Below are positions 858 to 31,734 of a stretch of 64,000 bases of DNA, piece after piece (the first letter of the stretch is position 1; every line of letters starts with the position of its first letter). This DNA comes from an uncultured Actinomycetota bacterium (lineage in GTDB: Bacteria > Actinomycetota > UBA4738), in contig CAVYRK010000007.1 of assembly GCA_963770955.1 (NCBI GenBank), positions 145,769 to 209,768 on the forward strand, written 5' to 3'. A program made the position numbers and the translations under genes. Below the pieces are notes generated by a model. The model had not been told where the DNA came from. It made no database searches and saw nothing but the letters and a program-made list of their open reading frames with translations.

Positions 858-1517
858 TCAGGCGGATCCGGGCGTCTGGGTGTGGCGCGCGAGGTAGGCG
901 GCCGCCTCCGCGCGGCGTCCCACCTCCAGCTTGGAGAGGATGCTCGAGACGTAGTTCTTGACGGTCTTCTCGGCGAGGTGCAGCTCCTCGCCGATCTGCT
1001 TGTTGGTCTGGCCGTCGGCGACCAGGGCCAGGATGCGCTCTTCCTGCGGAGACAGCCGGGCGAGCTTGTCGTCCTTCATCAGGTGCTTGCCCCTCCGCAG
1101 GCGGTCGAGCACCGCCTTGGTGACCTGAGGATCCAGCAGGCTCTTGCCCTGGCCCACCTCCCTGATCGCCTTCACGATCTCCGTGCCCTGGATCTGCTTG
1201 AGCACGTAGCCGGAGGCGCCGGCCATGATCGAGGCGAACAGAGCCTCGTCGTCGGCGAACGACGTCAGCATCAGGACCTGGGTCTTGGGACGCTTGGCGC
1301 GGATCTCCCGCGTCGCCTCGATCCCGCTGCCGTCCGCCAGGCGGACGTCCATGACGACCACGTCGGGGCGCGTTCGCTCGGCCTCCTCGACCGCCGCGCG
1401 CACCGAGCCCGCTTCCGCGCAGATCACGATGTCGTCCGCCGCCTCGAGCAGGGCCCGGACCCCGTCCCGGACGACCTCGTGGTCGTCCACCAGCATGACG
1501 CGCAGCGGCGTGGTCAT
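858..1517 (-). CDS. dosR: LuxR/NarL-family two-component response regulator, DevR/DosR-like
   Basis: 219 aa with an N-terminal receiver (MLVDDHEVVRDGVRALLE...DVVVMDVRLADGSG) and a C-terminal LuxR HTH (LSPQEERILALVADGQTNKQIGEELHLAEKTVKNYVSSILSKL). Lies immediately downstream of a GAF-GAF kinase. Confidence 0.85.
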   Translation of the reverse strand: MTTPLRVMLVDDHEVVRDGVRALLEAADDIVICAEAGSVRAAVEEAERTRPDVVVMDVRLADGSGIEATREIRAKRPKTQVLMLTSFADDEALFASIMAGASGYVLKQIQGTEIVKAIREVGQGKSLLDPQVTKAVLDRLRRGKHLMKDDKLARLSPQEERILALVADGQTNKQIGEELHLAEKTVKNYVSSILSKLEVGRRAEAAAYLARHTQTPGSA

Positions 1518-1563
1518 GCGCCCATGCTCTCATCCCGGACGGGCTTGGCCCAACCCCGGACCG

Positions 1564-3183
1564 TCACGACCGAAAGGCGATGCGAAGGGTGGTTCCTTCC
1601 CCGGGGATCGAGGTCAGGTCCAGGGACGCCCCCATCCCCTCCGCCCGCTGGAGCATGTTGCGCAGGCCCTGCCCCGCCGGCGGCGGAGACGAGACGTCGA
1701 AGCCGCGTCCGTCGTCGTCGACCAGCAGGACGGGACCATCGTGCTCCATCGCGAGCGACACGCGCACCGTCGCCGCGCCCGCGTGACGGCCCACGTTCGA
1801 AAGTGCCTCGCGGGCGAGCTGGACGACGTCCGTGGCCTTCCCGGCGAGGGCGGCAGCAGCGCGAGGATCCACCTCGGCGACGGTGACGACCCCGGTCCGC
1901 TCGGCGAACTCGGCACCGAGCTGCCGGAGGGCGTCGTCCAGCCGCCCGCCGGCGAGGATGTCGGGGCGCAGTCCGAAGATGTAGCTGCGGAGGTCCTTGA
2001 TCACCCGGTCGAGCTCCTCGACGCCGCCCTCGATCCGCCGGGCGATGTCCTCGTCCCCGGCCAGCATCGCCGTCCCCTGGAGTCCCATGCCGACGGCGAA
2101 CAGGGACTGGATCACGCCGTCGTGCAGCTCCTTGGCGATCCGCTCCCGGTCTTCCATGAGCGTCAGGCGCTGCAGCTGGCGCTGCGCGTCTCCGAACTCG
2201 ACGGCCACGGACGCCTGTGCAGCGAACGCTTCCACCAGATCGACCTGCGCTTCTGTGAAGGGCTCCGCCCCAATGGGATTGGCGACAGACAGCGTGCCGA
2301 AGGCCTGGTTCCGGACGATCAGCGGAATGAACATCGTGGGACCCATGCGCGTCAACTCGATGAGCGCCTCGTACGCGCGCTCGTCCTCCGACGCGTTCTC
2401 GACGACGATCGGCTTCCCCAGGCTGATCACACTTCCCGAGATCGAGCCTTCGAGGGGAACGACGGTTCCCTCCAGTCCGTCGGTGTCCCTTCCGTCCGCC
2501 GCCGCGACGACGAGCGAACCATCCTGCTCCCCGTCGGGAAGCACGACCCAGGCCATCGTGGCGCCGGCGAGCTCGCGGGAGCGCGCCACCACGAGGCCGA
2601 GCGCCTCCTTCACCTCCCCGCCGGCGAGGATGGCGGTCGTCACCTCGCCCAGGGCGGCGAGCCAGCGGCCACGGCTCTCGGATTGCTCGTACAGCCGGGC
2701 ATTCGCCACCGCGATCCCCGCCTGCGCGGCCAGGATCACCAGAGACGTCTGATCCTCCTCCGTGAACGGCGACCCGCCCTGCTTCTCCGTGAGGTAGATG
2801 TTGCCGAAGACCTCGCCGCGGGCCGTCACCGGGGCGCCGAGGAACGTCCGCATCGGTGGATGGTTCGGCGGGAAGCCGACGGACCGTGGGTCGTCCGCGA
2901 TCGAGGCCAGCCGAAACGGCCTCACGTCCTTGATGAGGGCGCCGAGGACGCCCCGTCCCGTGGGAGGGTGCCCGATGGCGCGGCGTTCCTCCGGAGTGAC
3001 CCCCACGGTCACGAACTCGATGATCCGATCCCCGGGGCCGAGCACTCCCAGCGCGCCGTACCGGGCGCCGGTGAGCTCTACCCCGAGCTCGACGATGGCC
3101 TGCAGCACCAAGGGAAGGGACAACTCCGACGAGAGCGCGAGCCCCGCCTCCAGCAGCACATCCCTTTGATCTCGCCCGGCCAT
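1564..3183 (-). CDS. dosS: Sensor histidine kinase with tandem GAF domains, DevS/DosS/DosT-like
   Basis: 539 aa with two GAF-like regions followed by a HisKA_3 region (ERIAKELHDGVIQSLF) and HATPase_c (GRGFDVSS...GLRNMLQRAEGMGASLDL). Adjacent to the LuxR-type regulator. Confidence 0.85.
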   Translation of the reverse strand: MAGRDQRDVLLEAGLALSSELSLPLVLQAIVELGVELTGARYGALGVLGPGDRIIEFVTVGVTPEERRAIGHPPTGRGVLGALIKDVRPFRLASIADDPRSVGFPPNHPPMRTFLGAPVTARGEVFGNIYLTEKQGGSPFTEEDQTSLVILAAQAGIAVANARLYEQSESRGRWLAALGEVTTAILAGGEVKEALGLVVARSRELAGATMAWVVLPDGEQDGSLVVAAADGRDTDGLEGTVVPLEGSISGSVISLGKPIVVENASEDERAYEALIELTRMGPTMFIPLIVRNQAFGTLSVANPIGAEPFTEAQVDLVEAFAAQASVAVEFGDAQRQLQRLTLMEDRERIAKELHDGVIQSLFAVGMGLQGTAMLAGDEDIARRIEGGVEELDRVIKDLRSYIFGLRPDILAGGRLDDALRQLGAEFAERTGVVTVAEVDPRAAAALAGKATDVVQLAREALSNVGRHAGAATVRVSLAMEHDGPVLLVDDDGRGFDVSSPPPAGQGLRNMLQRAEGMGASLDLTSIPGEGTTLRIAFRS

Positions 3184-3222
3184 GGCACCTCGGGCCGGAG
3201 ACTACCATCGGCCGCCCGGTGC

Positions 3223-3651
3223 TCAGGTCGCCGGATGTGCCTTCGACACGGCGCGATCCAGCGCCCGCAGCACCGCGCGGCTCGATGGTGGGCGGCGAAC
3301 GATCATCGCGCCCTCGCCGCGCAGGAGCGAGGCTTCCTCGCCCGGCTCGACGATGGCGACGAGCGCGAGACCCAGGTCCCGGTACAGCAGCGCCAACTGC
3401 CATCCGGTCGCTCCGCCGTAGAGCTCGTCTCCGAGCAGGACGGTGTCCAGCACGACGGCGTCGGCGCCCGAGGCCAATGGACACGTCCCGGTCCGCACGC
3501 CGACGCAGGCGTCGTCCGGGCTCGGCCCCGGGCAGGCGAGCACCTCGTGACCGGCCGTCTCGAGGGATCGTCCGATCTCGTCCCGGACGCGCTCGTCGGC
3601 GGCGACCAGCAGGACGCGAACTGAAGCCTTTCCCCTCACGTGCTGTCTCAT
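3223..3651 (-). CDS. Stand-alone receiver-like (REC) domain protein, possibly atypical, 40 nt upstream of dosS
   Basis: MRQHVRGKASVRVLLVAADERVRDEIGRSLETAGHEVL...AVVLDTVL resembles a CheY-like receiver fold. Same strand and tight spacing to dosS. Confidence 0.4.
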   Translation of the reverse strand: MRQHVRGKASVRVLLVAADERVRDEIGRSLETAGHEVLACPGPSPDDACVGVRTGTCPLASGADAVVLDTVLLGDELYGGATGWQLALLYRDLGLALVAIVEPGEEASLLRGEGAMIVRRPPSSRAVLRALDRAVSKAHPAT

Positions 3652-3696
3652 GTCACCCCAGCGTCGGTCGCGAGGCGTTGCCGGCCAAGGGTCGAG

Positions 3697-3717
3697 GGTC
3701 CCGCCGAAGGAGGGACC
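3697..3717. promoter_or_regulatory. Perfect inverted repeat GGTCCC-N9-GGGACC, 45-65 nt upstream of the REC-dosS-dosR operon start; candidate operator
   Basis: Read directly: GGTCCCgccgaaggaGGGACC. Similar GTCCC-N9-GGGACC and GGACCC-N9-GGGTCC elements occur at 34875-34943. Confidence 0.3.
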
Positions 3718-3735
3718 AAGCACCGTTCGCAAACG

Positions 3736-3757
3736 CGGAGCGGGGGGCGAGCGCCCC
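3736..3757 (-). terminator. Perfect GC hairpin (GCGGGGGGCG-ag-CGCCCCCCGC) just 3' of the COG2403 gene; intrinsic-terminator-like
   Basis: 10-bp perfect inverted repeat with a 2-nt loop read directly from the sequence. On the minus strand it is followed by TCCGCGTTTG, a weak U-tract. Confidence 0.4.
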
Positions 3758-3784: not shown

Positions 3785-5107
3785 TCACGCGACGGCGACC
3801 GAGAGCACCGGCGCCACGATGTCCTTCAGCGTGGGAACCCCCGGCAGCTCCCGCAGCGAGTACGTGACCCGGACCGCGGGACGCGGGATGCGGATCAGGT
3901 GCCGGAGGTCGATCGGGGTCGCCACGACCACCACCTCGCAGTCGGTCGCCGCGATGGCGGCTTCGAGCTCTGCGAGCTGCCCGGGCGAGTAGCCCTCGGC
4001 GGGAAGGACGGGGCCGACGTCGTACCTGTCGAACACGGCCTTCAGCGAGCCGGTGACGAACGGGCGCGGGTCGACGATCTCCTTCGCGCCGGCCCGCTGG
4101 GCCGCCACCACCCCGGCGCCGTACTTCATCCCTCCGTGGGTGAGGGTCGGACCGTCCTCGATGACCAGGACGCGCCGCCCCGCGATCGGCACGTCTCCCT
4201 CGATCCTCAGCGTGCTCTCCGCTCGGATCACCTCGGCGGAGGGATTGAGGTGGCGGATCGTCCGCTCCAGGGTCTCGACGGCCTCGGGCGTGGCGGCGTC
4301 GACCTTGTTGATCACCACGACGTCGGCCATCCGGAGGGCCGCCTCGCCCGGGTGGAACAACGTCTCGTCGCCCGTGCGAAGGGGATCCGCGACCACGATC
4401 AGGAGGTTCGGGCGGTAGAAGGGCAGGTCGTTGTTCCCGCCGTCCCACAGGAGCACGTCGCACTCCGTCTGGGCCCGTTCCAGGATCGCGCCGTAGTCCA
4501 CCCCGGCGTACACGACGGTCCCGCTCCGGATGTGGTGCTCGTACTCCTCCCGTTCCTCCACCGTGACCCGCGCGATGTCGAGGTCCTCGAGCGAGGCGAA
4601 TCGCTGGATGCGCTCGGCCACTAGGTCCCCGTAGGGCATCGGATGTCGCACGACGACCGGGCGGAGTCCCGCGGATCGCACGATCTCGGCGATGGCCCGC
4701 GTCGTCTGGCTCTTGCCGGCGCCCGTGCGGACCGCGCAGACGGCGATCACCGGCACGTTCGCCGGCAGCATCGTCGCATCCGGTCCGAGCAACGTGAAGC
4801 TCGCGCCGGCGGCGAGCGCCTTGCTCGCCCGGTGCATCACGTACTCGTGCGAGACGTCGGAGTAGCTGAACACCACCTCGTCGACCTTGAGCTCCCCGAC
4901 GAGCTCCTCCATCCGCTCCTCCGGATAGATGGGGATCCCGAGCGGATAGCCCTCGCCGGCCAGCTCGGCCGGGTACGTCCGGTCGTCGATGAACGGTATC
5001 TGCGCGGCGGTGAAGGCCACGACCTCCACGTCTCGGTCGTCGCGGAACACGACGTTGAAGTTGTGGAAGTCGCGTCCCGCGGCTCCCATGATGAGCACTC
5101 GCTTCAT
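3785..5107 (-). CDS. COG2403-family P-loop protein (cyclic 2,3-diphosphoglycerate synthetase-like)
   Basis: 440 aa. A Walker A-like motif GAGKSQTT follows an N-terminal Rossmann-like MKRVLIMGAAGRDFHNF; size and architecture fit the cDPG-synthetase/COG2403 family. Identity rests on memory of the family and is not verified. Confidence 0.5.
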   Translation of the reverse strand: MKRVLIMGAAGRDFHNFNVVFRDDRDVEVVAFTAAQIPFIDDRTYPAELAGEGYPLGIPIYPEERMEELVGELKVDEVVFSYSDVSHEYVMHRASKALAAGASFTLLGPDATMLPANVPVIAVCAVRTGAGKSQTTRAIAEIVRSAGLRPVVVRHPMPYGDLVAERIQRFASLEDLDIARVTVEEREEYEHHIRSGTVVYAGVDYGAILERAQTECDVLLWDGGNNDLPFYRPNLLIVVADPLRTGDETLFHPGEAALRMADVVVINKVDAATPEAVETLERTIRHLNPSAEVIRAESTLRIEGDVPIAGRRVLVIEDGPTLTHGGMKYGAGVVAAQRAGAKEIVDPRPFVTGSLKAVFDRYDVGPVLPAEGYSPGQLAELEAAIAATDCEVVVVATPIDLRHLIRIPRPAVRVTYSLRELPGVPTLKDIVAPVLSVAVA

Positions 5108-5140
5108 CGTCCCTCACTCCCTTTCTCTCATTGCATCGCC

Positions 5141-6674
5141 TCAGAGCGCGCCACGCCGTTCCCGATCGACAGGTCGGCGCGGCGCCTCCTCCAGCGTGAC
5201 GACGCCCATGCGCTCGAGCTCCACGGCGTGCCGGCGCTCGATCTCGGCGTGCTGGCGCCAGCGCATCAGCACGTAGACGGGGATGCCTGCCATCAGCAGC
5301 AGGAAGCCCCATGCGATCGTCTTCTCGCCCGAGCCCACCATCGCCCAGAACGCGTACCCGAAGCCCAGCAGCGCGATGATCGCGTCACGCACCAGCGACC
5401 GGCCGGCGAACCGGTCCGGCTCGCGGATCATCAGGACCAGGTGCGAGGCGGCGGCAAACGCGTACGGAACCAGCGTCGTCAGTGTGGCCAGGAGGATGAC
5501 GTTCCAGAACTGGTCCACCAGGCTCTTGCTGGAGTAGACCAGCATCAGCCCGCTGACCAGCACCGAGGAGACCACCAATCCGAACACGGGCGTGCGGCTC
5601 TTCCCGTTCACCACTCCGAACCGCTTGGGGAACAACCCATCCTGCGCGGCGGCCAGCGGAATGCGGCCCTGGATCAAGATCCAGCCGTTCAGGGCTCCGA
5701 ACGTGGAGATCAGCGCCACGAGCGCCACGAGCTTCTCCCATGTCAACCCGAGGAAGCTGCCCGTCCCGAACATCTCACGGGCGGCGTCGGCGAACGGGGC
5801 CGTCGACCCGGCCAGCTGCGCCATGGGGAGCACCCCCATGACGGCGATCGTCGCCAGCACGTAGACAACGGTCGTCGCGAGCGTGCCGAAGATCGTCGCG
5901 CGGGGGATGGTCTTCTTCGGCTCGCGGACCTCCTCGGCCGGCACCGTCGCCGATTCGAGGCCGATGAAGGCCCAGAGCGTCAGCGCGGCAGCGGCCGTGA
6001 TGCCGCCGATCATTCCGTCCCCCGTCCCCAATCCGTGGGGGGCGAAGGGCGTGAAGTGCGCTCCGTGGAGGAAGAAGAGCCCGGCGATGCCGATGCCCAG
6101 CAACGGAACGAACTTTAGGACGGTCGTGACGACCTGCACGACGTCCGGTCTGGCGGACGCCGACCGAGTTGACGAGCGTCAGGAGCCAGATCAGGCCGAT
6201 GCCGACCAGCGACGCCAGCAGATTGTTGTCGAGCACCGCGGGCCAGAACACCCCGAGGTAGGCAACGAACGCGACCGCGATGGCCGCGTTGCCGACCCAG
6301 GCGGCGATCCAGTACCCCCACGCGGTCCAGAAGCCGGCGAAATCACCGAATGCCCGGTGGGCGTAGGCGTACGGCCCGCCGGTCCGCGGATACGTGCGGC
6401 CCAACGTGGCGAACACCAGCGCGAGGAGCATCGCCCCGATGCCCGTGAACGCCCAGGCCAGGATCGAGCTCGAACCCGAGATCAGCACGACCGCGGCGAG
6501 CGACGCGGGCAGCAGGAAGACCCCGGAGCCGATCATGTTCCCGACGACGAGCGCCGTGGACATCCACGTTCCGAGGTCCCGCCTCAGCTCGGGCGACGTG
6601 TGCTCGGTCGGGATCGGGGGATTCTTCGTGCGTTCCATGACGATCCCTCCCTTCGCGGGGCGTGTCCACCCCAC
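5141..6674 (-). CDS. APC-superfamily amino-acid permease/antiporter; apparent frameshift near 6120-6170 splits it into two ORFs
   Basis: ORF 5775..6674 carries APC N-terminal TM helices (GSGVFLLPASLA...). ORF 5141..6139 carries the remaining TM helices and C-terminus. The two frames overlap over ~6120-6170 (exact point not resolved by eye). Confidence 0.75.
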
Positions 6675-6751
6675 GCATTCATGCTGGATCGCCGGTGTCC
6701 GGCCCGGTCCGCCGAAGGTCCCCCGACGGGGGGGACCCGTGTGAGGGCGTG

Positions 6752-9473: not shown

Positions 9474-9483
9474 GTCCGAGCGC

Positions 9484-12099: not shown

Positions 12100-12304
12100 C
12101 GTCACAACTCGGCTCCATGGGCGGCCGCTCACCGCCGGTCGCCCGGCTGGGCGAAGGAGCGCGAACGGACCGCAGGTTCGATCCTCCCCGTTTCCGGAGG
12201 CGAGCCGGGGAGCCGAACGGCACCCAGCGCCACGGACCTTCTGCCCTCCCCGGTCCGCCGGACTGCACCTACCGTCGGTAGGAGAAGCACCGAGGAGGTG
12301 GCCC

Positions 12305-13066: not shown

Positions 13067-13082
13067 TCGAGGGAGGTGGAAG

Positions 13083-16841: not shown

Positions 16842-17156
16842 GGGTGCGACCCTCCCGTGCTCGCCGCCGGCGGGGGCGCCGCGAATCCCGCCGTCACCAC
16901 CGCCGGCGCGCCGACCGTCACCACGCGCGGCGCGGACGAGACCACCACCCGCCGAACGACGTGGTGGATGAGCACAACCGGCCTTTGCGCCGTCGTTGCG
17001 GGCGGGGCCGCCGACGCCGGGGGCCTCGGCGCCATGGACAGGATGCCTGTGGGCAACAGGAAGCTCGCGCCGCCGGCCACCCACGTCCAGGCGCGAAGCA
17101 CCCCGCGCGACGCGCGCTTCGTACGGCGGGGAGGAGAGGGGACGACCCGCAGGTGC

Positions 17157-18268: not shown

Positions 18269-18271
18269 CCG

Positions 18272-21091: not shown

Positions 21092-21126
21092 TCGACCACT
21101 CTAGGGCGGGAGCCCGGACGCCTTGA

Positions 21127-22197: not shown

Positions 22198-23302
22198 TCA
22201 CGACGGTACCGTCTCGCGGCGGCGGCCGGCCAGGTAGTACGCGGCGCAGGCGCCCTCCGACGACACCATCGGGGCTCCGAGCGGGTGCTCGGGCGTGCAC
22301 TCCGTTCCGAACACCGAGCAGTGGTGCGGGCTTCGCCCTGCCCTGCAGCACCATGCCGGCGATGCACTTCTCGGACTCGGGAACCTCCTCGATCACCTCC
22401 GGGAAGCGGGCCTCGGCGTCGAACGCGCGGTAGGGCTCGGTGAGCCGGAACCCGCTGTTCGGAATCGGCCCCAGGCCCCGCCACGCGCGGTCGCACGGCT
22501 CGAACACCTCGGCGACCACCCGCATGGCGGCGGCGTTCCCCTCGCGGACCACCGAGCGGACGTACTGGTTCTCCACCTCCGCGCGCCCTTCCTCCAGTTG
22601 CAGGACGGCCATGCGGATGCCCTCCAGGAGGTCGAGCGGCTCGAACCCCGTCACGACGATCGGCACGCGGAACCGCTCGGCGATCGGCTCGTACTCCGTC
22701 CACCCCATGACCGTGCAGACGTGCCCGGGCGCCAGGAACGCCTGGACCCGGTTGCCGGGCGAGGCCAGGATCGCCAGCATCGCCGGTGGCACCAACACGT
22801 GCGCGACCAGCAGCGTGAAGTTGTCGATGCCCCGGAGCTTCGCCTGCCGAACGGCCATGGCGTTCGCCGGCGCGGTCGTCTCGAAGCCGACGGCGAAGAA
22901 CACGACCGTCCGGTCGGGGTTCGCGCGAGCGACCTCCACCGCGTCCAGCGGGGAGTACACGACGCGGACGTCGCCGCCGGCGGCCCGCGCCATGAACAGG
23001 TCCTCGCTCGAGCCGGGCACGCGCAGCATGTCGCCGAACGAGGTCAGTATCACGTCGGGCCGCTTCGCCAGCGACACGGCGCGGTCGATGACGGCGAGCG
23101 GCGTGACGCACACGGGACACCCGGGGCCGTGCACCATCTCGACCTCGTCGGGCAGGAGCTCGTCGATCCCCTGCCGCACCAGCGTATGCGTCTGCCCGCC
23201 GCAGACCTCCATGATCGTCCACGGCCGGGTGACCGTGTGCCGGATGTCGGCGAGCATGCCGCGCGCGATGCGCGAGTCGCGGTACTCGTCCACGTACCTC
23301 AC
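22198..23302 (-). CDS. hypD: Hydrogenase formation protein HypD; apparent +1 frameshift at ~22316 separates the C-terminal CPxFG...[22 protein letters not shown] segment
   Basis: N-terminus (V)RYVDEYRD... and motifs [15 protein letters not shown]. After ...LQGRAKPA the conserved [30 protein letters not shown] is found in another frame. Deleting one C restores KPAHCSVFG. Confidence 0.85.
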
Positions 23303-23580
23303 GGCGCTGCCCCCTCTCTGGCCACCGGCGGCTCCTGGGGCAGGTCGATGCCCTCGAGATTCCCCATCTCCTCCAGCAGCGCGTACGAGCGCGCTGCCTC
23401 TTCCTCGTCGACCACCGAGATCGCGAATCCGACGTGGACGATGACGAACGAGCCGACGTCCACCTCCGGCGCGTACTCCAGGCACGCCCGCCTGGTGATC
23501 CCGCCGAAGTCGACCACCCCCATGCGAAGGCCGTCCTCCGCGTAGACCTCCGTCACCTTCCCCGGCACGCCAAGGCACAT
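23299..23580 (-). CDS. hypC: Hydrogenase maturation factor HypC
   Basis: [12 protein letters not shown]... (the essential Cys2) and ~93 aa total. Overlaps the hypD start (GTGA). Confidence 0.85.
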
Positions 23581-23587
23581 GACGTCA

Positions 23588-25912
23588 TCACCTCCACTCG
23601 CTCGCCCGACCCTCACCCCGGCGGCCATGCGCCACCAGCACCTGTCCGAGGCTGATCCCTCCGTCGCCCGCGGGCGCCTGTCGCGGCACGAAGACCTGGA
23701 AATCGTTGCGCTCCAGCCGTTCCACTGTAGCGGTCAGGAGCAGATCGTTCTGGAACACTCCGCCCGCCAGGCACACGCGATCCGGGCCGCCGTCGTTCCT
23801 GATGGCGCGGCACACACCCTCGACGGCGGCGGCGACCGCGCGGTGGAACCGCATCGACACGGTGCCGGCATGCTCACCCGCGCCCAGGTCGGACACCACG
23901 GCGGCGATCACGGGCCTCGTGTCCACCAGGAACCGGCCGCCGTCACGCTCCACCGCGGCCGGATACGCTCCCGTCGCGCTCGGGTCCGCGGCCTGCTCCA
24001 GGAGGATGGCCGGCTGTCCCTCGTACGTCGCCCGGCCGCACACGCCGGCGAGCGCGGCCACGGCGTCGAACAACCGGCCCGCCGAGCTGGTGAGCGGCGA
24101 GGCCAGGCCGGTGTCGAGCTGCGCCAGCACGACGCCGCGTTCCTCGTGGGACAGTCGATCGGCGCCGCCTCCGTCCACGAGCGCGAGCGCTTCCTCCAGC
24201 ACACCGGCATCAAGGGCATGCGCCAGCGCCATGCGCTCGGGCCGCCGCACGGCGGCGTCGCCGCCCGGCTGACGCACCTGGCGCAGGTGCCCCGCGCGCT
24301 CGGCGCGCCGCTCGTCGCACACCAGGAATTCCCCGCCCCAGGCGGTTCCATCCTCGCCCAGGCCGAACCCGTCGAACGCCACGCCGAGCACCGTGCCGGT
24401 GAGGCCGTGCTCGGCCATGACGGCGGCGACGTGCGCGTGATGGTGCTGCACGGCGACCGACGGGAGGCCGAGCGACTCGGCCAGCCGTGTGGACGCGAAG
24501 TCGGGATGCAGGTCGTGGGCGACCACCTCCGGCTCGATGCCGAACAGGGCGCGGTACCGCTCCAGCGCCGCCCGGAACGCCGCGACGGTCGGTTCCGAGT
24601 CCAGGTCACCGACGTGCTGGGAGAGGAAGGCCCGGTCCCCGCTCGCCAGGCAGAAGGCCGCATGCAGCTCGGCCCCGACCCCCAGGGCCGGGATCACCTC
24701 GTGGGCGAGCCGAAGGGGCGCCGGAGCGAGCCCCCGGGCCCGGCGCATCACGGCCGGCGCGCCGCGCCAGACCCTGACGACCGAGTCGTCGTAGCGCGCG
24801 ACGATGTCCCGGTCGTGCACCAGGAAGGCGTCGGCGATGGCTCCGAGGGTCGTCGCCGCCTCGGCGTTCCCCGTGCAGATCGGCTCATCGGATCGGTTCC
24901 CGCTCGTCATCACCAGCGGGCGCCCGGCCTCGCGCAGCAGCAGATGGTGCAGCGGCGTGGAGGGCAGCATCGCCCCCTGGCGCCGGTGTCCGGGGGCCAC
25001 GGACTCCGCCAGCAGGCCGCGGTCGCGGACCAGCACGATCGGAGCGACGGCGCCGGCGAGCGCCCGCTCGTCGTCGGGGGAGAGATCGAACCGGCGGCGC
25101 GCCTCGTCGAGCGTCGCCACCATCACCGCGAACGGCTTGTCCGGGCGCGCCTTCCGAAGGCGCAGCTCGCGGACCGCCCGGTCGTTCGTGGCGTCGCACG
25201 CCAGCTGGAAGCCACCCAGGCCCTTCACGGCGACGATCGCGCCGGCACGCAGCAGCCGCGCCGCGGCCTCGATGGGATCGTCGTCCCCCGTCCCGAGCGC
25301 GCGTCCGTCGGCCGCGACCAGCGAGATTCGCGGGCCGCAGGCCGGACACGCCACCGGCTCGGCGTGGAAGCGCCGGTCCGCCGGGTCCCCGTACTCGCGC
25401 GCACAGGCCGCGCAGAGCGGAAAGGCCCGCATGCTGGTGCGCTCGCGGTCGTACGGGAGCCCTTCGATGATCGTGAACCGCGGGCCGCAGTCGGTGCAGT
25501 TCACGAACGGGTACCGGTGGCGGCGGTCGCCGGGGTCGAACAGCTCCGCGAGACAGGCGGCGCACGTGGCGACGTCCGGCGGAACCATCCGGCCCGCCTC
25601 GCCCGCCTCGCCCGCCTCGCTCGCCGCGACCACGAACGACGAGCGGCCCGTCGCGAGGGCCGGTGTGGTGCGGACCGAGTCGACGCGCGCGAGCGGCGGC
25701 GCCTCCCGGGCGATCGCGTCCGTGAAGGCCTCCAGCGCCTCCGGACGGCCTTCGGCCCGGATCTCGACCACGCCGTCCCGGTTGCGCACCCATCCCCCCA
25801 CCCCGTGGCGTTGCGCCAGCCGCCACACGTGCGGCCGGAACCCGACGCCCTGGACGACGCCGCGCACCTCGACCTCGAGCGCCCGCACGTCCGTCCGCAG
25901 CGCCTCCGTCAT
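23588..25912 (-). CDS. hypF: Carbamoyltransferase HypF
   Basis: 775 aa from MTEALRTD. N-terminal acylphosphatase (VRGVVQGVGFRPHVWRLAQRHGVGGWVRN), two CxxC Zn-finger pairs, then YrdC and Kae1-like regions. Confidence 0.9.
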   Translation of the reverse strand: MTEALRTDVRALEVEVRGVVQGVGFRPHVWRLAQRHGVGGWVRNRDGVVEIRAEGRPEALEAFTDAIAREAPPLARVDSVRTTPALATGRSSFVVAASEAGEAGEAGRMVPPDVATCAACLAELFDPGDRRHRYPFVNCTDCGPRFTIIEGLPYDRERTSMRAFPLCAACAREYGDPADRRFHAEPVACPACGPRISLVAADGRALGTGDDDPIEAAARLLRAGAIVAVKGLGGFQLACDATNDRAVRELRLRKARPDKPFAVMVATLDEARRRFDLSPDDERALAGAVAPIVLVRDRGLLAESVAPGHRRQGAMLPSTPLHHLLLREAGRPLVMTSGNRSDEPICTGNAEAATTLGAIADAFLVHDRDIVARYDDSVVRVWRGAPAVMRRARGLAPAPLRLAHEVIPALGVGAELHAAFCLASGDRAFLSQHVGDLDSEPTVAAFRAALERYRALFGIEPEVVAHDLHPDFASTRLAESLGLPSVAVQHHHAHVAAVMAEHGLTGTVLGVAFDGFGLGEDGTAWGGEFLVCDERRAERAGHLRQVRQPGGDAAVRRPERMALAHALDAGVLEEALALVDGGGADRLSHEERGVVLAQLDTGLASPLTSSAGRLFDAVAALAGVCGRATYEGQPAILLEQAADPSATGAYPAAVERDGGRFLVDTRPVIAAVVSDLGAGEHAGTVSMRFHRAVAAAVEGVCRAIRNDGGPDRVCLAGGVFQNDLLLTATVERLERNDFQVFVPRQAPAGDGGISLGQVLVAHGRRGEGRASEWR

Positions 25913-26397
25913 CGGCGCGCGACCCCGGCGAGCTCTCTGGCGACGCCGGCCGCCGCGGCGGCGACGTCCGGAATCGCCGCCAGAACCGGGGGCGAGAGCG
26001 GGCTCCCGGCCGCGACGTCGCGCACCTCGACCCCGACGAACGCCACCCGGGAGGGCACGCCCACCGCCGCGGCGACCCCCACGGTCTCGGCGACCCCGAG
26101 GCCGTGCGAGGACAGCGCGGAGCGCAACCCGTCGGGAATGCCGTCGCGGAGGTCGTCCACCCGCACGACCTCTCCCGGCCGGTACGCCCCGCGCGACCGC
26201 ACCGCGTCGACGACGACGGCCGGGATTCCGTCCTGCAGCAGGTCCAGCAGCCGCAGAGGCGAGCCGGCCTCGACGACCTCGGCGCCCGGCACGTCTCGGA
26301 GCAGCCGCCGGATCTCGGCCGCGGCCGCGAGGCCGGCGCCGTCGTCGCCCGCATCGGGATTGCCGCAAGCGATCACGCGGACCGCGGCCTCGCTCAT
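25909..26397 (-). CDS. Hydrogenase maturation (C-terminal processing) endopeptidase
   Basis: [26 protein letters not shown]... is typical of HycI/HoxW-type proteases. ~162 aa. Sits between the large subunit and hypF (ATGA overlap). Confidence 0.8.
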   Translation of the reverse strand: MSEAAVRVIACGNPDAGDDGAGLAAAAEIRRLLRDVPGAEVVEAGSPLRLLDLLQDGIPAVVVDAVRSRGAYRPGEVVRVDDLRDGIPDGLRSALSSHGLGVAETVGVAAAVGVPSRVAFVGVEVRDVAAGSPLSPPVLAAIPDVAAAAAGVARELAGVARR

Positions 26398-27710
26398 TCC
26401 CGGCGCACGTCCAATCGAAGGAAGTGTGTCGCGCAGGAGATGCACGGGTCGTACGTCCGAACGAGCATCTCGCACGACAGCGCGAGCTCCGGGTCGGGTT
26501 GGTGGACGACGCCGGGAATGAACGCCCGGAGGTCCTCCTCGATGTGCCGGAGGTTCTGTGAGGTGGGCGGGACGATCTTCGCCTCGAGGATCGTGCCGTC
26601 GCCGCCCACGTCGTAGCGGTGGAAGAGGATGCCGCGAGGAGCCTCGGTCACCCAGGCGCCCCGCCCCGCCTTCGGCCGGACGTCGGCCATGGGCGGCTCG
26701 GGAGGCTCGTACGCCTCGATCAGGCGCAGCGACTCCTCCAGGGCGACCGCCGTCTCGACGACCCGGGCCGGCATCGACGCGAAGCGATCGCGCACCGCAC
26801 CCCCGTCGACGCCGAGCCGGACCGCCAGCTCGGCCGCCACCGGCGTCAGCCGGCCCCGGTTCAGGTTCAGCCGGGCGAGCGGCCCCACCATGTAGGAGCC
26901 GCCGCCGGTGAACCGGGCGTGCAGCGCGTTGGAGTGCTCGACGTGCAGCTCCTCGACGGTCGTCCTCGAACGTCGCCGCGTCGAACGCGCGGCCCTCCGT
27001 CGACGCCAGCGTCCCCTCGTTCATCGGGTACTCGTCCGGATGCACCATCGCCACCATCTCGGTCGCGAGGTCGAAGGACGGCGCCGGCAACCCCGACGCC
27101 CACTCGGCGACGTCCCGGATCGCCGCGATCGCGTCCTGCGAGTCGGCCGGACAGCGCGCGCAGGTCCCGCGGTCGCGGCGCGCGCGAGAAGCCACCCACG
27201 CGCGGAGACACCGGATGGATCTCGCGGCCGCCGATCGTGGCCAGCAGGTCGTTGCCCAGTCGCTTGATCCGCAGGCCGCGCTCGACGGCGGCCCGTTCGC
27301 GCTGCGCCATCTCGATCGCGCTGTCGTATCCGAGGAGGTCCGGCGCGGCCAGCAGGTGGACGTGGAGCATGTGGCTCTCGATCCACTCCGCGCAGTACAG
27401 CATCCTGCGCAGCTCGCGCGTCCCCGGCGGCACCTCGCACCTCGAACAGCTCTTCCAGCGCGTGCACCGCGCTCATCTGGTACGCGACCGGACAGATGCC
27501 GCAGATCCGGGGAACGATGTCGGGCACCTCCGAGAAGTGGCGCCCGGCCAGGAAGGCCTCGAAGAACCGGGGCGGCTCGTAGATGTCCAGCCGGAGGTCG
27601 ACGATCTCGTCGCCGCGAAGCCCGAGGTGCAGCGCGCCCTCGCCCTCCACGCGGGCGATGGCCGGCACCTCGATGAGGCGGTTCGGCGACGCGGGGTTCG
27701 CGTGGGTCAC
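26394..27710 (-). CDS. hyhL: NiFe hydrogenase large (alpha) subunit, group 3b type; currently broken into three frames (at least 3 indels, including a 7-bp tandem duplication at 27431-27444)
   Basis: N-terminal [12 protein letters not shown]...[14 protein letters not shown] (RxCGxC). The mid-region [23 protein letters not shown] and [16 protein letters not shown] are in different frames. The C-terminus carries the DPCxxCxxH nickel motif ([10 protein letters not shown]) followed by a cleavable tail. Confidence 0.85.
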
Positions 27711-28511
27711 GTCGCGCACCTCCCGTTCCTGCGTCCCCTCGGTCTCCGGTTCGTCGAAGGCGTCCCGGAACGCGGGCGCCCATCCGGTGATGAACCGGAA
27801 GCTGGACGCGGCCAGCGACGGGGACATCCCGAGCTGGACGAACTGGCGGCGAAGCGCCTCCACGTTGGGCGGCTGCGAGGGACCGAAGCAGCCGTAGCAC
27901 CCGCGGCCGAAGGCGGGGCACAGCGCGCCGCAGCCGGTCCGCGTGACCGGTCCGAGACACGGCTCGCCCTTGGCCACGACCACGCAGACGTACCCGCGCC
28001 GCTTGCATTCGACGCAGACCGGCACGGTCGACACGCGAGGCATGGCGCCCTGCAGCAGTGACGCGATCGCGCCGAGCAGCTGGCCGCGGTCCACCGGGCA
28101 GCCCGTCAGCTCGAGGTCCACCCGCACGTGGTCGGCGATCGGCGTGGACGTGGCGAGCGAGCTGATGTACTCGGGCGTCGGGTAGACGGCCCGCACCGTC
28201 TCGCCCGCGTCCATCCAGTTGCGGAGCGCCTGCACGCCGCCCGACGTCGCACACGCGCCGATCGTCATCAGGAACGTCGAGACCTCGCGGATATGCGCGA
28301 TCTCCTCCAGCTGCGCCGGCGTCGACACCGACCCCTCCACGATCGTCACGTCGTAGGGGCCGGGGTCCGTGTGCGAGGTCGCCTCGGTGAACTGCACGAT
28401 GTCCACGGCCGTCGCCAGGTCGAGCAGCGCCTCCTCGGCGTCCAGCAGCTGCAGCTGGCACCCGTCGCACGAGGCCATCTTGAACACCGCGATGCGCGGC
28501 CGGGCGCTCAC
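27708..28511 (-). CDS. hyhS: NiFe hydrogenase small (delta) subunit, group 3b type; reads through into the large subunit with no in-frame stop (probable indel near its 3' end)
   Basis: (V)[23 protein letters not shown]..., [14 protein letters not shown] and the distal-cluster Cys motifs [12 protein letters not shown]...[30 protein letters not shown] start overlaps the gamma stop (GTGA). Confidence 0.8.
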
Positions 28512-29383
28512 AGCTCCGCCACTCCCAACCACTCCTCGGCCGTGCTCCAGGGAAAGACCGGCCCGTCGTGACACACGAACACGGGACCGAACTGGCAGTG
28601 CCCGCACAGGCGCACGGCGCACTGCATGTTCCGTTCCATGGACACCCACACGTGGTCCGGCGAAACGCCTCGGTCGACGAGACCCTTCGCCGCGAACCGC
28701 ATCATGATCTCCGGACCGCAGACGAACGCGGTCGTCCGGTGCGGGGCGAGCCCGGCCTGCTCGTACAGCGTGGTCACCACGCCGTGGGTGAACGGCCACG
28801 CGTCGTCCGGCACGTCGACGGTCTGATGGACCTCGATGGCGCGGTCGCGGATCCAGTGGCTCCACGCGTCGAGCTGGTGCCGGTACAGCATGTGCTCGGG
28901 CCCGCGGGCGCCGACCAGGATCATCACGCGGCGGAACCGCCTCCGACGGTGGATGGCCCGGTAGATGATGGGGCGCACCGGAGCGAGCCCCAGGCCGCCG
29001 GCCACGATGAGCAGGTCGCCGCCCTCGGCCTCGTCGACCGGCCAGGGCCGCCCGTACGGACCGCGCAGCCCCAGGCGGTCACCCGGACCGATCGACCGGA
29101 ACAGGTCGGTCACCCGTCCCGTGGCCCGGATGGTGTGGGCCAGGCGCTCGGGCGCGCCGGGTCCGACGAGATCGAGATCGGCACCTCTCCGGATCCGAAG
29201 ACGTACAGCATGTTGAACTGCCCGGGCAGGAACCGGTAGGCGGCCCGCCGTTCCGGGTCCGCGATGGACAGCCAGTACGTCGCGGTGTCGGGCGTCTCCT
29301 GCACGACCCGCCGCACCACGCGCGACCGAGTCCGGCATCAGCGAAACCGCCGGAACGGCCGCCGGGGCGACGACGGTGGTCAT
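28508..29383 (-). CDS. hyhG: Hydrogenase gamma subunit (FAD/NAD(P)-binding oxidoreductase with a C-terminal 2Fe-2S site); 1-2 apparent frameshifts (~29150 and ~29330)
   Basis: The N-terminal part [45 protein letters not shown] is in ORF 29110..29319. It continues in another frame as [15 protein letters not shown]...[13 protein letters not shown]...[23 protein letters not shown]. Confidence 0.75.
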
Positions 29384-30501
29384 TCGGACGGTACGGCGGC
29401 CACGACGACCCCGTCCTCGATGCGGATGGCGGCGATCTCCTCGGTCACGTCGATCCCCACGGGACACCAGGTGATGCACCGGCCGCACCCGACGCACCCG
29501 GAGGTGCCGAACTGGTCGATCCACGACGCGAACTTGTGCGTCAGCCACTGCCGGTAGCGCGACGAGCGCGCCGTTCGGACGTCCCCACCCACGGTGTGGC
29601 TGAACTCGTCGCTGAAGCACGAGGCCCACTCGCGGGTCCGCGTCGCGGTGGTTCCCAGGATGTCGGTCGCGTCCACCACGTCGTGGCAGAAGCACGTCGG
29701 GCACGCGGACGTGCAGTTCCCGCACGCCAGGCAGCGGTCGCCCACCTCGAGCCAGCGCGGATGCTCCCGGTTGCGGTAGAGCAACCCCGGCAGGTCGCCG
29801 GTCTCCAGAGCCCGTCCCATCGCGCCGGTGGCCCGCTCGGTGACCTCCCGGTCGGCCCGTTCCTCGTCGGGGGTGGCCTCCCGGGCACCGGCCGCCAGCA
29901 GCAGCTCGGCCCCGAGCTCGGTGCCGGCGTCCGCGACGAAGCCCCCGTCCAGCTCGGTCAGGGAGACGTCGAACCCGCTCGAGCACCGGGGTCCCGTTCC
30001 CATGGACGCGCAGAAGCACGTCCCCCCGGGGAACTCGCAGTTCATCGCGACGAACACGGCGTCGCGCCGCCGTTGGGCGTACGCCGGGTCCGGGGCCGGA
30101 CCCTCCAGGAACACGCGATCCTGGACGGCCACGGCGTGCAGGTCGCAGGAACGGATGCCCACGAATGCGATCGGCCGCTCGTCCTCGGGCGTGGCGGGCT
30201 CGAATCGCAGATCGCCGTCATCGCGCGCAGCGGTGCCCAGGACCTCGCGGGCGGGAAAGAGGAAGCGCTTGGCCGAGTCCGGCCCGTGGGCGAACCCGAA
30301 CCACCGGTCGTCCGCCCGTGGGACGACCCGGTACCGGCCGGCCTCCTGCTCCTCGCCCATCCCGCGCGGAAGCTCGTCGGAGGACGAAATCTCGTCGAGC
30401 ACGATCGCCCCGTCGCGGACGGTGGGTCCGATCAGCCGGTATCCGCGGCCGACCAGATCCTCGAGCAGCCGTTCGAGTCCACTCCTGTCGACAAACCGCA
30501 T
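29380..30501 (-). CDS. hyhB: Hydrogenase beta subunit (4Fe-4S ferredoxin-type, sulfhydrogenase HydB-like)
   Basis: 373 aa with Cys-rich motifs CEFPGGTCFCASMGTGP, CLACGNCTSACPTCFCHD and CVGCGRCITWCPVGID. Confidence 0.8.
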   Translation of the reverse strand: MRFVDRSGLERLLEDLVGRGYRLIGPTVRDGAIVLDEISSSDELPRGMGEEQEAGRYRVVPRADDRWFGFAHGPDSAKRFLFPAREVLGTAARDDGDLRFEPATPEDERPIAFVGIRSCDLHAVAVQDRVFLEGPAPDPAYAQRRRDAVFVAMNCEFPGGTCFCASMGTGPRCSSGFDVSLTELDGGFVADAGTELGAELLLAAGAREATPDEERADREVTERATGAMGRALETGDLPGLLYRNREHPRWLEVGDRCLACGNCTSACPTCFCHDVVDATDILGTTATRTREWASCFSDEFSHTVGGDVRTARSSRYRQWLTHKFASWIDQFGTSGCVGCGRCITWCPVGIDVTEEIAAIRIEDGVVVAAVPSE

Positions 30502-30504
30502 CCG

Positions 30505-31126
30505 CTATCCCCGGGCACCGACCTCAGCGTCGAATTCGAAGCGTACACCCAGCACCCCCGGCACACTCCGGGCGAGCAGCTCGGCGAGCCGGCGCTCCGA
30601 CGGGCCGCCGCCTCCGGCGAGGACCACCTCGCCGCCGCGCACGATCACGTCGAAACGTCCGACCATGAAGGCCTGGTCACCGATCAGGGCCTCCACGTCC
30701 GCCTTGATCTCGGAGTCCTCGCGGACCATCGTCCGGAGCAGGTCGCGACGGCTCAGGATGCCCACCACGCGAGCCCCCGACACGATCGGGATGCGCTTCA
30801 CGCGGCGTTCGACCATCAGGCGCGCGGCCTCAGCCGCGTCCGCGTCCTCCGGGAGCGCGATCACGTCCCGCGTCATCACTTCGTCCGCCTGCATCTGGAC
30901 CCTCGACGGAGGCTCCCCGGTGGGGAGGATGTGCCGCCTCGGGTCCTCGGAGGTCTCCAGCCGAACGAGGTCGGCCTCGGACACGATCCCCACCAGCCAG
31001 CCGTCGTCCCCGACGACCGGCACCGCGCTGATCCCGCGCTCGACGAGGATCGACGCAACCTGCTTCAAGGAAGTCGTGGGCGAGACGCACACGACCGGGT
31101 GTCGACATCAGCTCCTTCACACGCAT
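30505..31126 (-). CDS. CBS-pair plus BON-domain protein, first gene of the hydrogenase transcription unit; apparent 1-nt insertion near 31098 displaces the first ~10 codons
   Basis: MRVKELMSTP is in one frame and (V)CVSPTTSLKQVASILVERGISAVPVVGDDGWLVGIVSEADL... is in the next. Removing one G from CCCGGTC joins them as ...MSTPVVCVSP.... The C-terminal BON-like segment is GGEVVLAGGGGPSERRLAELLARSVPGVLGV. Confidence 0.75.
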
Positions 31127-31266
31127 CGAACTCACCTCCGATACCATGCTCCGGCAGGCGGCTGCTCCCATCCCGGGTCCTCCGACCCGCATGCCGGAGG
31201 TCCATTGGCGGTTGGTTCCGGAGCTCGCCCGGTCCAGGCTCGAGGCGGCGCACACTGGAGGCGACC

Positions 31267-31734
31267 ATGGACACGACGCGTGACGACCGAATCACCCTCG
31301 GGACGGTGGGCGACGCGATGACGGCGACCGTCGTCACGATCGGCCCGGACGAGCCGCTGGGCGAGGCCGCGAGAACGCTGGAGCGCGCGGGCGTCTCGGG
31401 CGCTCCGGTCCTCGACGGCGATCGCGTCGTCGGGGTCCTGTCACTCCGCGACATCCTTCGCTCGACCGGCGACGGCGGCGGCCCCGTGGCGACGACCGGC
31501 CCCTGGCTCCGACACGAGCGCGACCTCGATCGCTCCGGCCGGCTGGTGGCGGACATCATGAGCCGCCGGACCGTGACGGTGCGCGCCTCGGACTCAGTGG
31601 TCGACGCGGCTGCGCGGATGCAGGCGGCCGGCGTGAACCGGGTTCCCGTGATCGACGACGACCACCATCTGGTCGGCATCCTCACCCGCGACGACATCGT
31701 CGCGGCCGTGGCGGGGTCGCGCCGTCCGGGCTGA
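31267..31734 (+). CDS. CBS-domain pair protein
   Basis: 155 aa with two CBS motifs (VGDAMTATVVTIGPDEPLGEAARTLERAGVSGAPVLDGDRVVGVLSLRDIL; VADIMSRRTVTVRASDSVVDAAARMQAAGVNRVPVIDDDHHLVGILTRDDI). Confidence 0.8.
   Translation: MDTTRDDRITLGTVGDAMTATVVTIGPDEPLGEAARTLERAGVSGAPVLDGDRVVGVLSLRDILRSTGDGGGPVATTGPWLRHERDLDRSGRLVADIMSRRTVTVRASDSVVDAAARMQAAGVNRVPVIDDDHHLVGILTRDDIVAAVAGSRRPG

Follow-up and report, generated by a model that had tools for sequence, protein, structure and literature searches.

Introduction

The closest described relatives of the locus studied here are the DosS/DosT-DosR (DevS-DevR) systems of mycobacteria and the OsdK/OsdR system of Streptomyces coelicolor. In Mycobacterium smegmatis, low O2 induces the hypoxia cluster msmeg_3926-3955, which adjoins devR/devS and holds the hydrogenase Hyd3 together with a P-type ATPase (PMC2799521). 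Activation of the Hyh hydrogenase of this species by DosS/T-DosR has also been reported (bioRxiv 10.1101/2023.09.11.557286). In Mycobacterium tuberculosis (Mtb), tandem Dev boxes in helical phase are a hallmark, with sites at -42.5 and -63.5 and with G5 and C7 as essential bases (PMC3177182). For OsdR of S. coelicolor the consensus AGGGCCGATCGGCCCT has been described, its sites lying at -81 and -100 (PMC5069765). The content of the DosR regulon is known to vary between species, with M. abscessus as one example (PMC10034137). Here we analyzed a stretch of 64,000 nucleotides (nt) from an uncultured Actinomycetota bacterium (contig CAVYRK010000007.1 of assembly GCA_963770955.1), hereafter called the window. 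An original prediction had described positions 858-31734 of this stretch as a dormancy or hypoxia island resembling the mycobacterial DosR regulon, with a group 3b hydrogenase inside it. We think it probable that the island represents a regulon for gas and redox stress of the DosS/T-DosR type (DevSR/OsdKR type) in an uncultured member of the Actinomycetota with ~70% GC (guanine plus cytosine). The box-marked regulon is predicted to run to ~36.8 kb, because boxes precede sulfur, CBS and SRPBCC units there, and it probably includes the DoxX gene before the start of the interval. The gene identities, the residue conservation and the location and conservation of the boxes are established.

What makes the locus like the M. 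smegmatis cluster is that DevS/DevR genes occur together with a gene for a cation P-type ATPase and with those of a group 3b hydrogenase, namely its protease and its four subunits (beta, gamma, delta and alpha). On the other hand, universal stress proteins (USPs), HspX, PfkB, PEP synthase and Tgs-type genes were not found; this and all later statements on missing genes refer to Pfam scans of the called genes in the window. Furthermore, hypFCDE, the ATPase gene and a phosphoribosyltransferase (PRTase) gene appear to be fused into the hydrogenase operon behind a gene for a CBS-pair protein with a BON domain (CBS-BON), and the kinase-regulator operon has the order small protein, kinase, regulator. 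CBS and CBS-BON proteins are numerous in the window, which adds an operon for sulfide:quinone oxidoreductase (SQR), TusA, DsrE2 and OsmC as well as SRPBCC, DoxX and flavodoxin-like proteins, and the lineage is uncultured and non-mycobacterial.

With Mtb DosS/DosT-DosR, the locus shares the sensor architecture, the heme ligands, the phospho-acceptor and DNA-contact residues and the tandem palindromic box. There is also a likeness to the CBS-pair protein Rv2626c of the Mtb regulon: the fourth CBS-pair protein of the window (CBS4) matches it with an E value of 3e-12, but 16 other CBS chains in the PDB score better, so that CBS4 is not specifically closest to Rv2626c and the resemblance is one of class. 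The Mtb DosR regulon also holds the P-type ATPase CtpF and the PRTase-domain genes Rv0571c and pncB2. Conversely, a group 3b hydrogenase is absent from Mtb, the window box favors C/G at the variable half-site position, like OsdR, where Mtb has A/T, and USPs, HspX, Acg, Tgs1, NarK2 and FdxA were not found in the window. The OsdK/OsdR island of S. coelicolor (SCO0167-SCO0219) likewise has a DevSR-type pair amid box-preceded stress genes, and its box is essentially the same. However, the S. coelicolor island has a link to development and carries many USP and nitrate reductase genes, and neither a group 3b hydrogenase nor an SQR module has been reported in it. Finally, sulfhydrogenase I (SHI) of Pyrococcus furiosus resembles the hydrogenase in its four-subunit beta-gamma-delta-alpha composition and is the best solved relative of HyhL and HyhB, whereas it is an archaeal enzyme with ~35-40% identity and different regulation, and the DosR context is absent.

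The island is thus a further example of a known system and not a new kind, because M. smegmatis already provides the DosR-Hyh link and the content of DosR regulons varies by species. So far, experiments have shown the link between DosR and a group 3b hydrogenase in M. smegmatis alone; the island would extend it to uncultured, deep-branching Actinomycetota of soil. We take this as a sign that survival by fermentative H2 release, controlled by a heme-based O2/gas switch, is ancient and widespread in the phylum. In addition, organisms that have not yet been grown gain a concrete regulon, with boxes and targets, that can be tested.

Results

The kinase and the regulator

Genes were called by third-position GC, the GC content being ~70% throughout the 64 kb, and the called genes were checked against Pfam, NCBIfam and the sequences of the PDB. 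The coordinates of all features are collected in Table 1. The best PDB match of the response regulator is Mtb DevR (3c3w; E 6e-55, 189 bits), which aligns over its full length (residues 5-211), ahead of VraR (8e-45, 156 bits), NarL (4e-31, 112 bits) and the Mtb NarL receiver (62 bits). The regulator keeps the equivalent of Asp54, with 'VVMDVRL' opposite 'AVLDVRL' of DevR. In the alignment to 3c3w its recognition helix 'LAEKTVKNYVS' equals DevR residues 176-186, including K179, K182 and N183. These three residues (Lys179, Lys182 and Asn183) contact DNA in the DosR-DNA structure.

The four kinase domains lie at residues 23-159, 193-328, 346-409 and 449-537 (Pfam), and no membrane anchor was detected in the protein. 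Its GAF-A domain is closest to DosT (2vzw, 1.3e-47), followed by DevS (2w3d and others, ~1e-43). In the alignment to 2vzw and 2w3d the proximal His is kept in 'NHPPMRTFLG' and the distal Tyr in 'FGNIYLTEK'; they correspond to H149 and Y171 of DosS, or H147 and Y169 of DosT. The pocket has Gly at the position of DosS Glu87, as in DosT, and the stretch 'YGALGVLG' is DosT-like. NCBIfam has no entry for a DosR/DosS model, and neither protein reached any cutoff there. Because of its architecture and defining residues, the pair qualifies by sequence as DosS/T-DosR type. Heme binding and ligand-controlled autophosphorylation of the kinase are predicted from the same residues.

The first gene of the predicted kinase-regulator operon encodes a conserved 142-aa protein. 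The single-sequence AlphaFold model of this protein could not be used, its predicted local distance difference test (pLDDT) value being 45. Strands and helices alternate along the protein in a receiver-like way.

The predicted hydrogenase operon

The best PDB match of HyhL, reconstructed across its frame breaks, is the alpha subunit of P. furiosus SHI (9nez_D, 6e-61), and the second is the cytosolic enzyme of Thermococcus kodakarensis (5yxy, 1e-57); both come ahead of group 3d, 3a and 3c enzymes. HyhB is closest to the SHI beta subunit (9nez_B, 1.5e-40). The Cys-pair motifs of the Ni-Fe site, 'RICGIC' and 'DPCISCATH', are present in the reconstructed HyhL. By these comparisons the hydrogenase is a group 3b NiFe enzyme with a beta-gamma-delta-alpha layout. 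No hypA or hypB was found among the called genes of the window that were scanned with Pfam, and these genes may lie elsewhere in the genome.

DosR-type boxes in the window

We searched for palindromes of the Dev-box type because the DNA-contact residues of the regulator are those of DevR. The strict Mtb core, GGGAC-N4-GTCCC, was uninformative in DNA of 71% GC, and it was replaced by GGGNC-N4-GNCCC together with tests of location. This pattern keeps the G and C that are essential in Mtb and matches the OsdR consensus. The 64 kb contain 10 such sites, none of them beyond the first 37 kb, and 7 fall in intergenic DNA, which makes up only 6.6% of the sequence (P=5e-7). When palindrome types were enumerated without a prior, this one ranked first of 304 for intergenic enrichment. 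The clustering of the island genes exceeds chance, and it is between the genes of this region that the DosR-type palindrome is concentrated.

A position weight matrix (PWM) was built from 28 sites of other genomes and is thus independent of the window. Its top 7 matches in the window all lie in promoter-type positions of the island region, and the two best are in the group of boxes at 34867-34951. PWM score thresholds were dropped as evidence, since the scores were not significant against simulated sequence. The significance of the boxes therefore rests on their location and conservation and not on match quality, as both the PWM score and the strict-core count are uninformative.

The box at 3689 is a predicted autoregulatory site of the kinase-regulator operon, and the DoxX gene, with its one-mismatch box, is a probable member of the regulon. 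Distances of 42.5-44.5 nt from box center to ATG equal the -42.5 position of the proximal Mtb Dev box (PMC3177182), and such a spacing would fit leaderless transcripts.

Two inverted repeats of the form GGTCCC-N9-GGGACC, at 3699-3719 and 6718-6738, share the flank 'CCGCCGAAGG'. The former overlaps the box at 3689, and the latter comes after the GNAT gene; both may serve in termination or attenuation.

Boxes in related loci

Two scans covered the relatives. In metagenomes, the scan for the kinase turned up 29 contigs, on which the kinases share at least 47% identity with it. Beside these kinases we found, recurrently, genes for the regulator (70-84% identical), SRPBCC, 142-aa, CBS, CBS-BON and DoxX proteins, and also the GNAT/acyl-CoA-synthetase-like gene and the SQR-TusA-DsrE2 cluster. 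Orthologues of the GNAT gene (55-69% identity) stand beside DosT-like kinases in four loci (L087, L089, L094 and L101), and the sulfur cluster adjoins related kinase/regulator pairs in three (L092, L100 and L101).

Orthologues were then scored for an exact box within 250 nt upstream, which has a chance of 5% per gene. A box was present before 7 of 15 SRPBCC orthologues (five at 43 nt and two at 65-68 nt; P=3.5e-6), 3 of 4 homologues of the 142-aa gene and 2 of 3 DoxX orthologues. For the CBS-pair genes the counts were 3/7 (CBS4), 2/2 (the gene at 31267-31734) and 2/7 (another CBS gene), and for the regulator 3/13. Moreover, tandem boxes 21-24 nt apart occurred 11 times in 2.1 Mb, while ~0.15 were expected, an excess of ~70-fold. 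This spacing reproduces, at the level of sequence, the helically phased layout of DevR promoters.

The scan for HyhB in species-representative genomes gave 80 loci. All of the closest relatives are uncultured Actinomycetota metagenome-assembled genomes (MAGs) with ~70% GC (best identity 77%, mostly 60-70%), and the gene order hyhBGSL-hycI-hypFCDE is kept in ~40 Actinomycetota MAG loci. An exact box stands 83-104 nt upstream of hyhB in 15 of ~42 actinobacterial loci (28 with at most one mismatch), and in none of the non-actinobacterial loci.

The genes that flank hyh vary between relatives. In three loci (L016:5263-9920, L042:5225-9879 and L003:452-4965), genes for pyruvate:ferredoxin oxidoreductase (PFOR) and a dihydroorotate dehydrogenase (DHODH)-like protein lie directly upstream of hyhB and are preceded by a box. 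PFOR, DHODH-like and hyhBGSL genes apparently form one operon (e.g. in L016 and L042), and this PFOR-Hyh module is absent from the window. In others (L011:8538-9869, L013:8547-9884, L050:8535-9866 and further loci) a nicotinate phosphoribosyltransferase gene diverges from hyhB and shares with it a box-containing intergenic region; this gene is reminiscent of pncB2 of the Mtb DosR regulon. A CBS-pair protein and alanine dehydrogenase are further box-preceded neighbors of hyhB. The whole set of PFOR, nicotinate phosphoribosyltransferase, CBS protein and alanine dehydrogenase fits a fermentative, NAD-salvaging low-oxygen program.

A model of the regulon

In the model that we prefer, the cytoplasmic kinase would carry heme in GAF-A, and a fall of O2 or the binding of NO, CO or H2S would lead to phosphorylation of the regulator, as the conserved residues suggest. 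The phosphorylated regulator would bind GGGNC-N4-GNCCC, singly or in tandem (21-24 nt), and activate transcription, a step to which the DNA-contact residues and the position and conservation of the boxes point. Its predicted targets would be its own operon (142-aa protein, kinase and regulator); the 13-gene operon led by CBS-BON, with the group 3b NAD(P)-linked hydrogenase, its protease, HypFCDE, a P-type cation ATPase and the PRTase; stand-alone CBS-pair proteins and the flavodoxin-like protein; the SQR-TusA-DsrE2-OsmC sulfide/persulfide operon; and the SRPBCC protein and probably DoxX. If it works like Hyh of M. smegmatis, the hydrogenase would vent excess NAD(P)H as H2 under O2 limitation (PMC2799521; bioRxiv 10.1101/2023.09.11.557286). 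The accessory genes would keep ions, nucleotides and sulfur in balance while the cells survive without growth.

A predicted sulfur operon and the nature of the signal

The SQR-like flavoprotein of the predicted sulfide/persulfide operon is closest to human SQOR (8dhk, 5.6e-40) among PDB sequences, and it scores 349 bits with the NCBIfam model of type III SQR, below the cutoff. We know of no mycobacterial DosR regulon with OsmC or an SQR/TusA/DsrE2 module. The operon raises the question of whether the same machinery serves another signal: the heme kinase might mainly report sulfide, NO, CO or reductive stress and not the lack of O2, in which case the island would chiefly be a regulon for sulfide and reductant detoxification (SQR-TusA-DsrE2-OsmC plus an H2-evolving valve) and not a dormancy program. 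Consistent with such a role, Mtb DosS binds H2S via ferric heme, which induces the regulon (PMC9062744), three boxes, the two best of the window included, precede the sulfur operon, and the sulfur cluster recurs beside related kinase/regulator pairs (the three loci above). The failure to find USP, HspX and Tgs families among the called genes points in the same direction. Nevertheless, the distal pocket of the sensor, with Gly at the DosS Glu87 position, is like that of Mtb DosT, which is an O2-dissociation sensor. The M. smegmatis hydrogenase of the same class is induced by O2 limitation (PMC2799521), and O2 and sulfide signals are not mutually exclusive. Taken together, we regard a regulon chiefly for detoxification as unlikely, and a gas and redox stress regulon as the better description.

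A related proposal concerns the clade as a whole. It is conceivable, and we put it forward only tentatively, that in a widespread uncultured clade of soil Actinomycetota the heme switch directly controls the SQR/TusA/DsrE2 operon and fermentative H2 evolution, with CBS, CBS-BON, SRPBCC and GNAT/acyl-CoA-synthetase-like proteins replacing the USP/HspX/Tgs effectors of mycobacteria. If so, the ancestral role of DosR would be the management of reductant and sulfide at oxic-anoxic interfaces and not pathogen-style 'dormancy'. The locus hints that sulfide oxidation may be under DosS-type sensing, which would echo the H2S binding of Mtb DosS.

Findings that weigh against a regulon

The clustering might instead be coincidental: the two-component system would control itself or a few genes, the palindromes would be generic GC-rich inverted repeats (terminators, repeat elements), and the neighbors would be unrelated redox genes. 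We gather here the findings that weigh against a regulon, some of which favor this explanation. The strict Mtb core with at most two mismatches was found 71 times in the window, with 108 expected, and is thus not enriched overall. By score alone, the boxes do not exceed the null, since the best PWM score was 13.6 and the mean maximum in simulated sequence 13.2. The intergenic site at 3744 resembles a terminator stem and is probably a terminator hairpin. About 40% of the interval 858-31734 is boxless: no box was found for ATPase 1 (neither an exact nor a one-mismatch match in 12100-12304), the GNAT protein, CBS-BON1, the AlaDh-like genes, ApbE or the ferric-reductase-like gene. Besides the variable genes around hyh in relatives, no kinase/regulator was found within 10 kb of hyhB in any of the 80 loci; the tight co-location of kinase and hyh is therefore a property of this genome or its near kin and not general. 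USPs, HspX, Acg-type nitroreductases and Tgs1 were not found in the window, and hyhL, hypD and CBS-BON2 are frame-broken as assembled. Lastly, every regulatory step is one that we infer, namely heme binding, the signal (hypoxia induction), activation as opposed to repression, the operon boundaries and the physiology. However, a coincidence sits badly with fixed box distances before orthologous genes whose proteins are otherwise only 40-80% identical, with the ~70-fold excess of the tandem spacing, with the first rank of the palindrome in an unbiased test, and with DNA-contact residues identical to those of DevR. We consider it very improbable.

The genes at 3785-17468, a stretch in which no box was found, are regarded as neighbors and not as predicted targets. 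For this segment there are two hints: the GNAT gene is recurrently linked to related kinases, and in L016 a box lies 52 nt before the AlaDh-like pair. Pairs orthologous to the AlaDh-like genes of the window adjoin hyh in L002 and L016, and orthologues of the genes at 15286-17468 adjoin hyp genes in L019.

Frame breaks

At least ten frame anomalies were seen in the window, in genes that are otherwise well conserved, at 675-760, 6140, ~7900, ~22340, ~26960, ~27138, ~27480, ~27711, ~31093 and ~54117. As assembled, hyhL has three frame breaks, and hyhS reads into hyhL in the same frame because its stop is absent. The last ~40 residues of hypD are shifted to another frame, and the true start of CBS-BON2 (ATG 31126, MRVKELMSTP...) is out of frame with the remainder of the gene. 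Eight breaks were checked, in CBS-BON2, hyhL (three), hypD, the GNAT gene, the permease gene and a nitrilase-family gene, and all share a shift of +1 nt (or -2). The nitrilase-family gene (53556-54506), which has the same direction of break, lies outside the island, and by hand arithmetic the DoxX break has this direction too. Because a single direction is common to all checked breaks, the one beyond the island included, we read them as probable systematic consensus insertion errors of assembly or polishing and not as decay. In related assemblies hyhL is mostly intact, and it is broken in several long-read MAG loci (L004, L021, L036, L039, L075 and L078). In 11 of 12 relatives hyhS has a stop codon of its own, in another frame and directly ahead of the start of hyhL, L013 being uninformative; the missing stop in the window is probably another +1 error and not a natural fusion.

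That the island is a decaying relic, with hyhL, hypD, CBS-BON2 and others as pseudogenes of a system no longer functional, could be argued from the three breaks in hyhL, the lost stop between hyhS and hyhL, the single breaks in hypD, CBS-BON2, the GNAT gene and the permease gene, and the local density of anomalies (four within ~1.4 kb of hyhSL), but we give it hardly any credence, as every checked anomaly has the same direction, those of the nitrilase-family gene and DoxX included, which points to systematic consensus error, third-position GC of ~0.9 is maintained across the broken segments, the Ni-Fe ligand motifs are intact, and the hyhL breaks recur in several long-read MAG loci while most other assemblies are intact. 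Real pseudogenization of the hydrogenase was accordingly rejected as the main explanation, on the grounds of the shared break direction and the break beyond the island. Automated annotation of the contig will fragment the frame-broken genes.

Gene content of the island

Much of the gene list in the original prediction agrees with our annotation: the DosR-like regulator, whose best solved relative is DevR and whose contact residues are identical; the DosS-like kinase with two GAF domains, which has the architecture GAF-GAF-HisKA_3-HATPase_c and a GAF-A closest to DosT/DevS; two CBS proteins with BON domains; two P-type ATPases; a phosphoribosyltransferase; and the different, very GC-rich actinobacterial lineage, borne out by ~70% GC and by closest relatives among uncultured Actinomycetota MAGs. 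Other items need amendment. Only three of the four CBS-pair proteins placed within 858-31734 lie inside it, CBS4 being beyond its end, and the OsmC-like gene is real and also lies just past the end. The Hyd3-type NiFe hydrogenase with hyp genes is there as group 3b hyhBGSL with protease and hypFCDE; it was called complete, whereas hypA and hypB were not found and hyhL and hypD are frame-broken. As for the claim that the locus condenses the gene classes of the DosR regulon, its core stands (regulator, kinase, hydrogenase and boxes), and the claim about classes was overstated, given that USP, HspX, Acg and Tgs1 genes were not found among the called genes scanned with Pfam. The interval also contains genes beyond the earlier list: the GNAT/acyl-CoA-synthetase-like, permease, two AlaDh/PNT-like, ApbE and ferric-reductase-like genes.

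Table 1. Positions of genes, predicted operons and boxes in the window (distances are from the box center; ORF, open reading frame).
Feature	Position	Strand	Basis and remarks
DoxX-family membrane protein	139-760	-	Pfam DoxX; frame break near 675, likely ATG 760
One-mismatch box GGGCCGTTCGGTCC	840-853		86.5 nt upstream of DoxX; 4th best PWM match
DosR/DevR-like response regulator	858-1517	-	Pfam REC (92 bits), LuxR/GerE HTH (65 bits)
DosT/DosS-like sensor histidine kinase	1564-3183	-	Pfam GAF-A, GAF-B, HisKA_3, HATPase_c
Conserved 142-aa protein, first gene of kinase-regulator operon	3223-3651	-	No Pfam/NCBIfam match
Box GGGTCGAGGGTCCC	3689-3702		44.5 nt upstream of ATG 3651 (142-aa gene)
Gene run without box support (440-aa protein to P-type ATPase 1)	3785-12099	-	Pfam
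440-aa protein	3785-5107	-	Weak CobW/HypB-like P-loop match, residues 235-294
Amino-acid permease	5141-6674	-	Pfam; one frame break
GNAT + CoA-binding + Succ_CoA_lig + ATP-grasp_5 protein	6752-9473	-	Pfam; one frame break
P-type ATPase 1	9484-12099	-	Type IIA-like; DKTGT and GDGVND motifs
CBS-pair + BON protein (CBS-BON1)	12305-13066	+	Pfam; no box in window
Two AlaDh/PNT-like genes	13083-14195, 14174-15433	+	Pfam; no box in window
Ferric-reductase-like membrane protein, ApbE flavin transferase, small membrane protein	15286-17468	-	Pfam; no box
Predicted 13-gene operon	17570-31126	-	Order CBS-BON2, hyhBGSL, protease, hypFCDE, ATPase 2, PRTase; gaps at most 35 nt
PRTase	17570-18268	-	Pfam
P-type ATPase 2	18272-21091	-	Type IIA-like; DKTGT and GDGVND motifs
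hypE	21127-22197	-	Pfam
hypD	22200-23302	-	Pfam; one frame break
hypC	23299-23580	-	Pfam
hypF	23588-25912	-	Pfam
hycI-like maturation protease	25909-26376	-	Pfam
hyhL (alpha, large subunit)	26394-27710	-	Pfam NiFeSe_Hases
hyhS (delta, small subunit)	~27711-28511	-	Pfam Oxidored_q6
hyhG (gamma)	28508-29338	-	Pfam NAD_binding_1, DHODB_Fe-S_bind
hyhB (beta)	29380-30501	-	Pfam Fer4_22
CBS-pair + BON protein (CBS-BON2)	30505-31126	-	Pfam; operon leader
Box GGGTCCTCCGACCC	31175-31188		Divergent region; 55.5 nt from CBS-BON2 ATG (31126), 85.5 nt from CBS start (31267)
CBS-pair protein	31267-31734	+	Pfam
Predicted sulfide/persulfide operon	31745-34807	-	Pfam
OsmC-like	31745-32176	-	Pfam
DsrE2	32178-32717	-	Pfam
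TusA	32723-32956	-	Pfam
SQR-like flavoprotein	32970-34118	-	Pfam
TusA	34125-34364	-	Pfam
DsrE-like	34379-34807	-	Pfam
Three boxes	34867-34880, 34915-34928, 34938-34951		Between sulfur operon and flavodoxin-like gene; last two 23 nt apart
Flavodoxin-like protein	35013-35537	+	Pfam
Fourth CBS-pair protein (CBS4)	35579-35974	+	Pfam
62-codon ORF	35979-36167	-	No Pfam match
One-mismatch box	36195-36208		Upstream of 62-codon ORF; 6th best PWM match
SRPBCC-fold protein	36225-36728	-	Weak Pfam Polyketide_cyc2
Box GGGCCGACCGTCCC	36764-36777		42.5 nt upstream of SRPBCC ATG

Neighboring genes

Both P-type ATPases match the NCBIfam model TIGR01522, with 526 and 621 bits, under the cutoff of 798. In the GNAT protein, an N-terminal GNAT domain is fused to a body like that of ADP-forming acyl-CoA synthetases, and the His motif 'SHTGA' is kept. 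The protein may act as a protein acetyltransferase of the PatA type, or else as an active enzyme of fermentation that forms acetate and yields ATP. The N-terminus of the 440-aa protein may resemble cyclic 2,3-diphosphoglycerate synthetase-like proteins.

Neither the Rfam nor the tRNA scan gave a match in the window, and no sign of a mobile element was seen in it. On the minus strand at 39789-43745 there is a GlcF/GlcE/GlcD-like set (CCG + Fer4, FAD_binding_4, FAD-oxidase_C), and after it come genes for cyclase, RidA and D-serine-dehydratase-like proteins. All of them are boxless and belong to ordinary metabolism, and they mark the end of the island. Farther on, at 56578-59807, genes for an ECF sigma factor and a zf-HC2 anti-sigma factor diverge from ftsH and are unrelated to the island.

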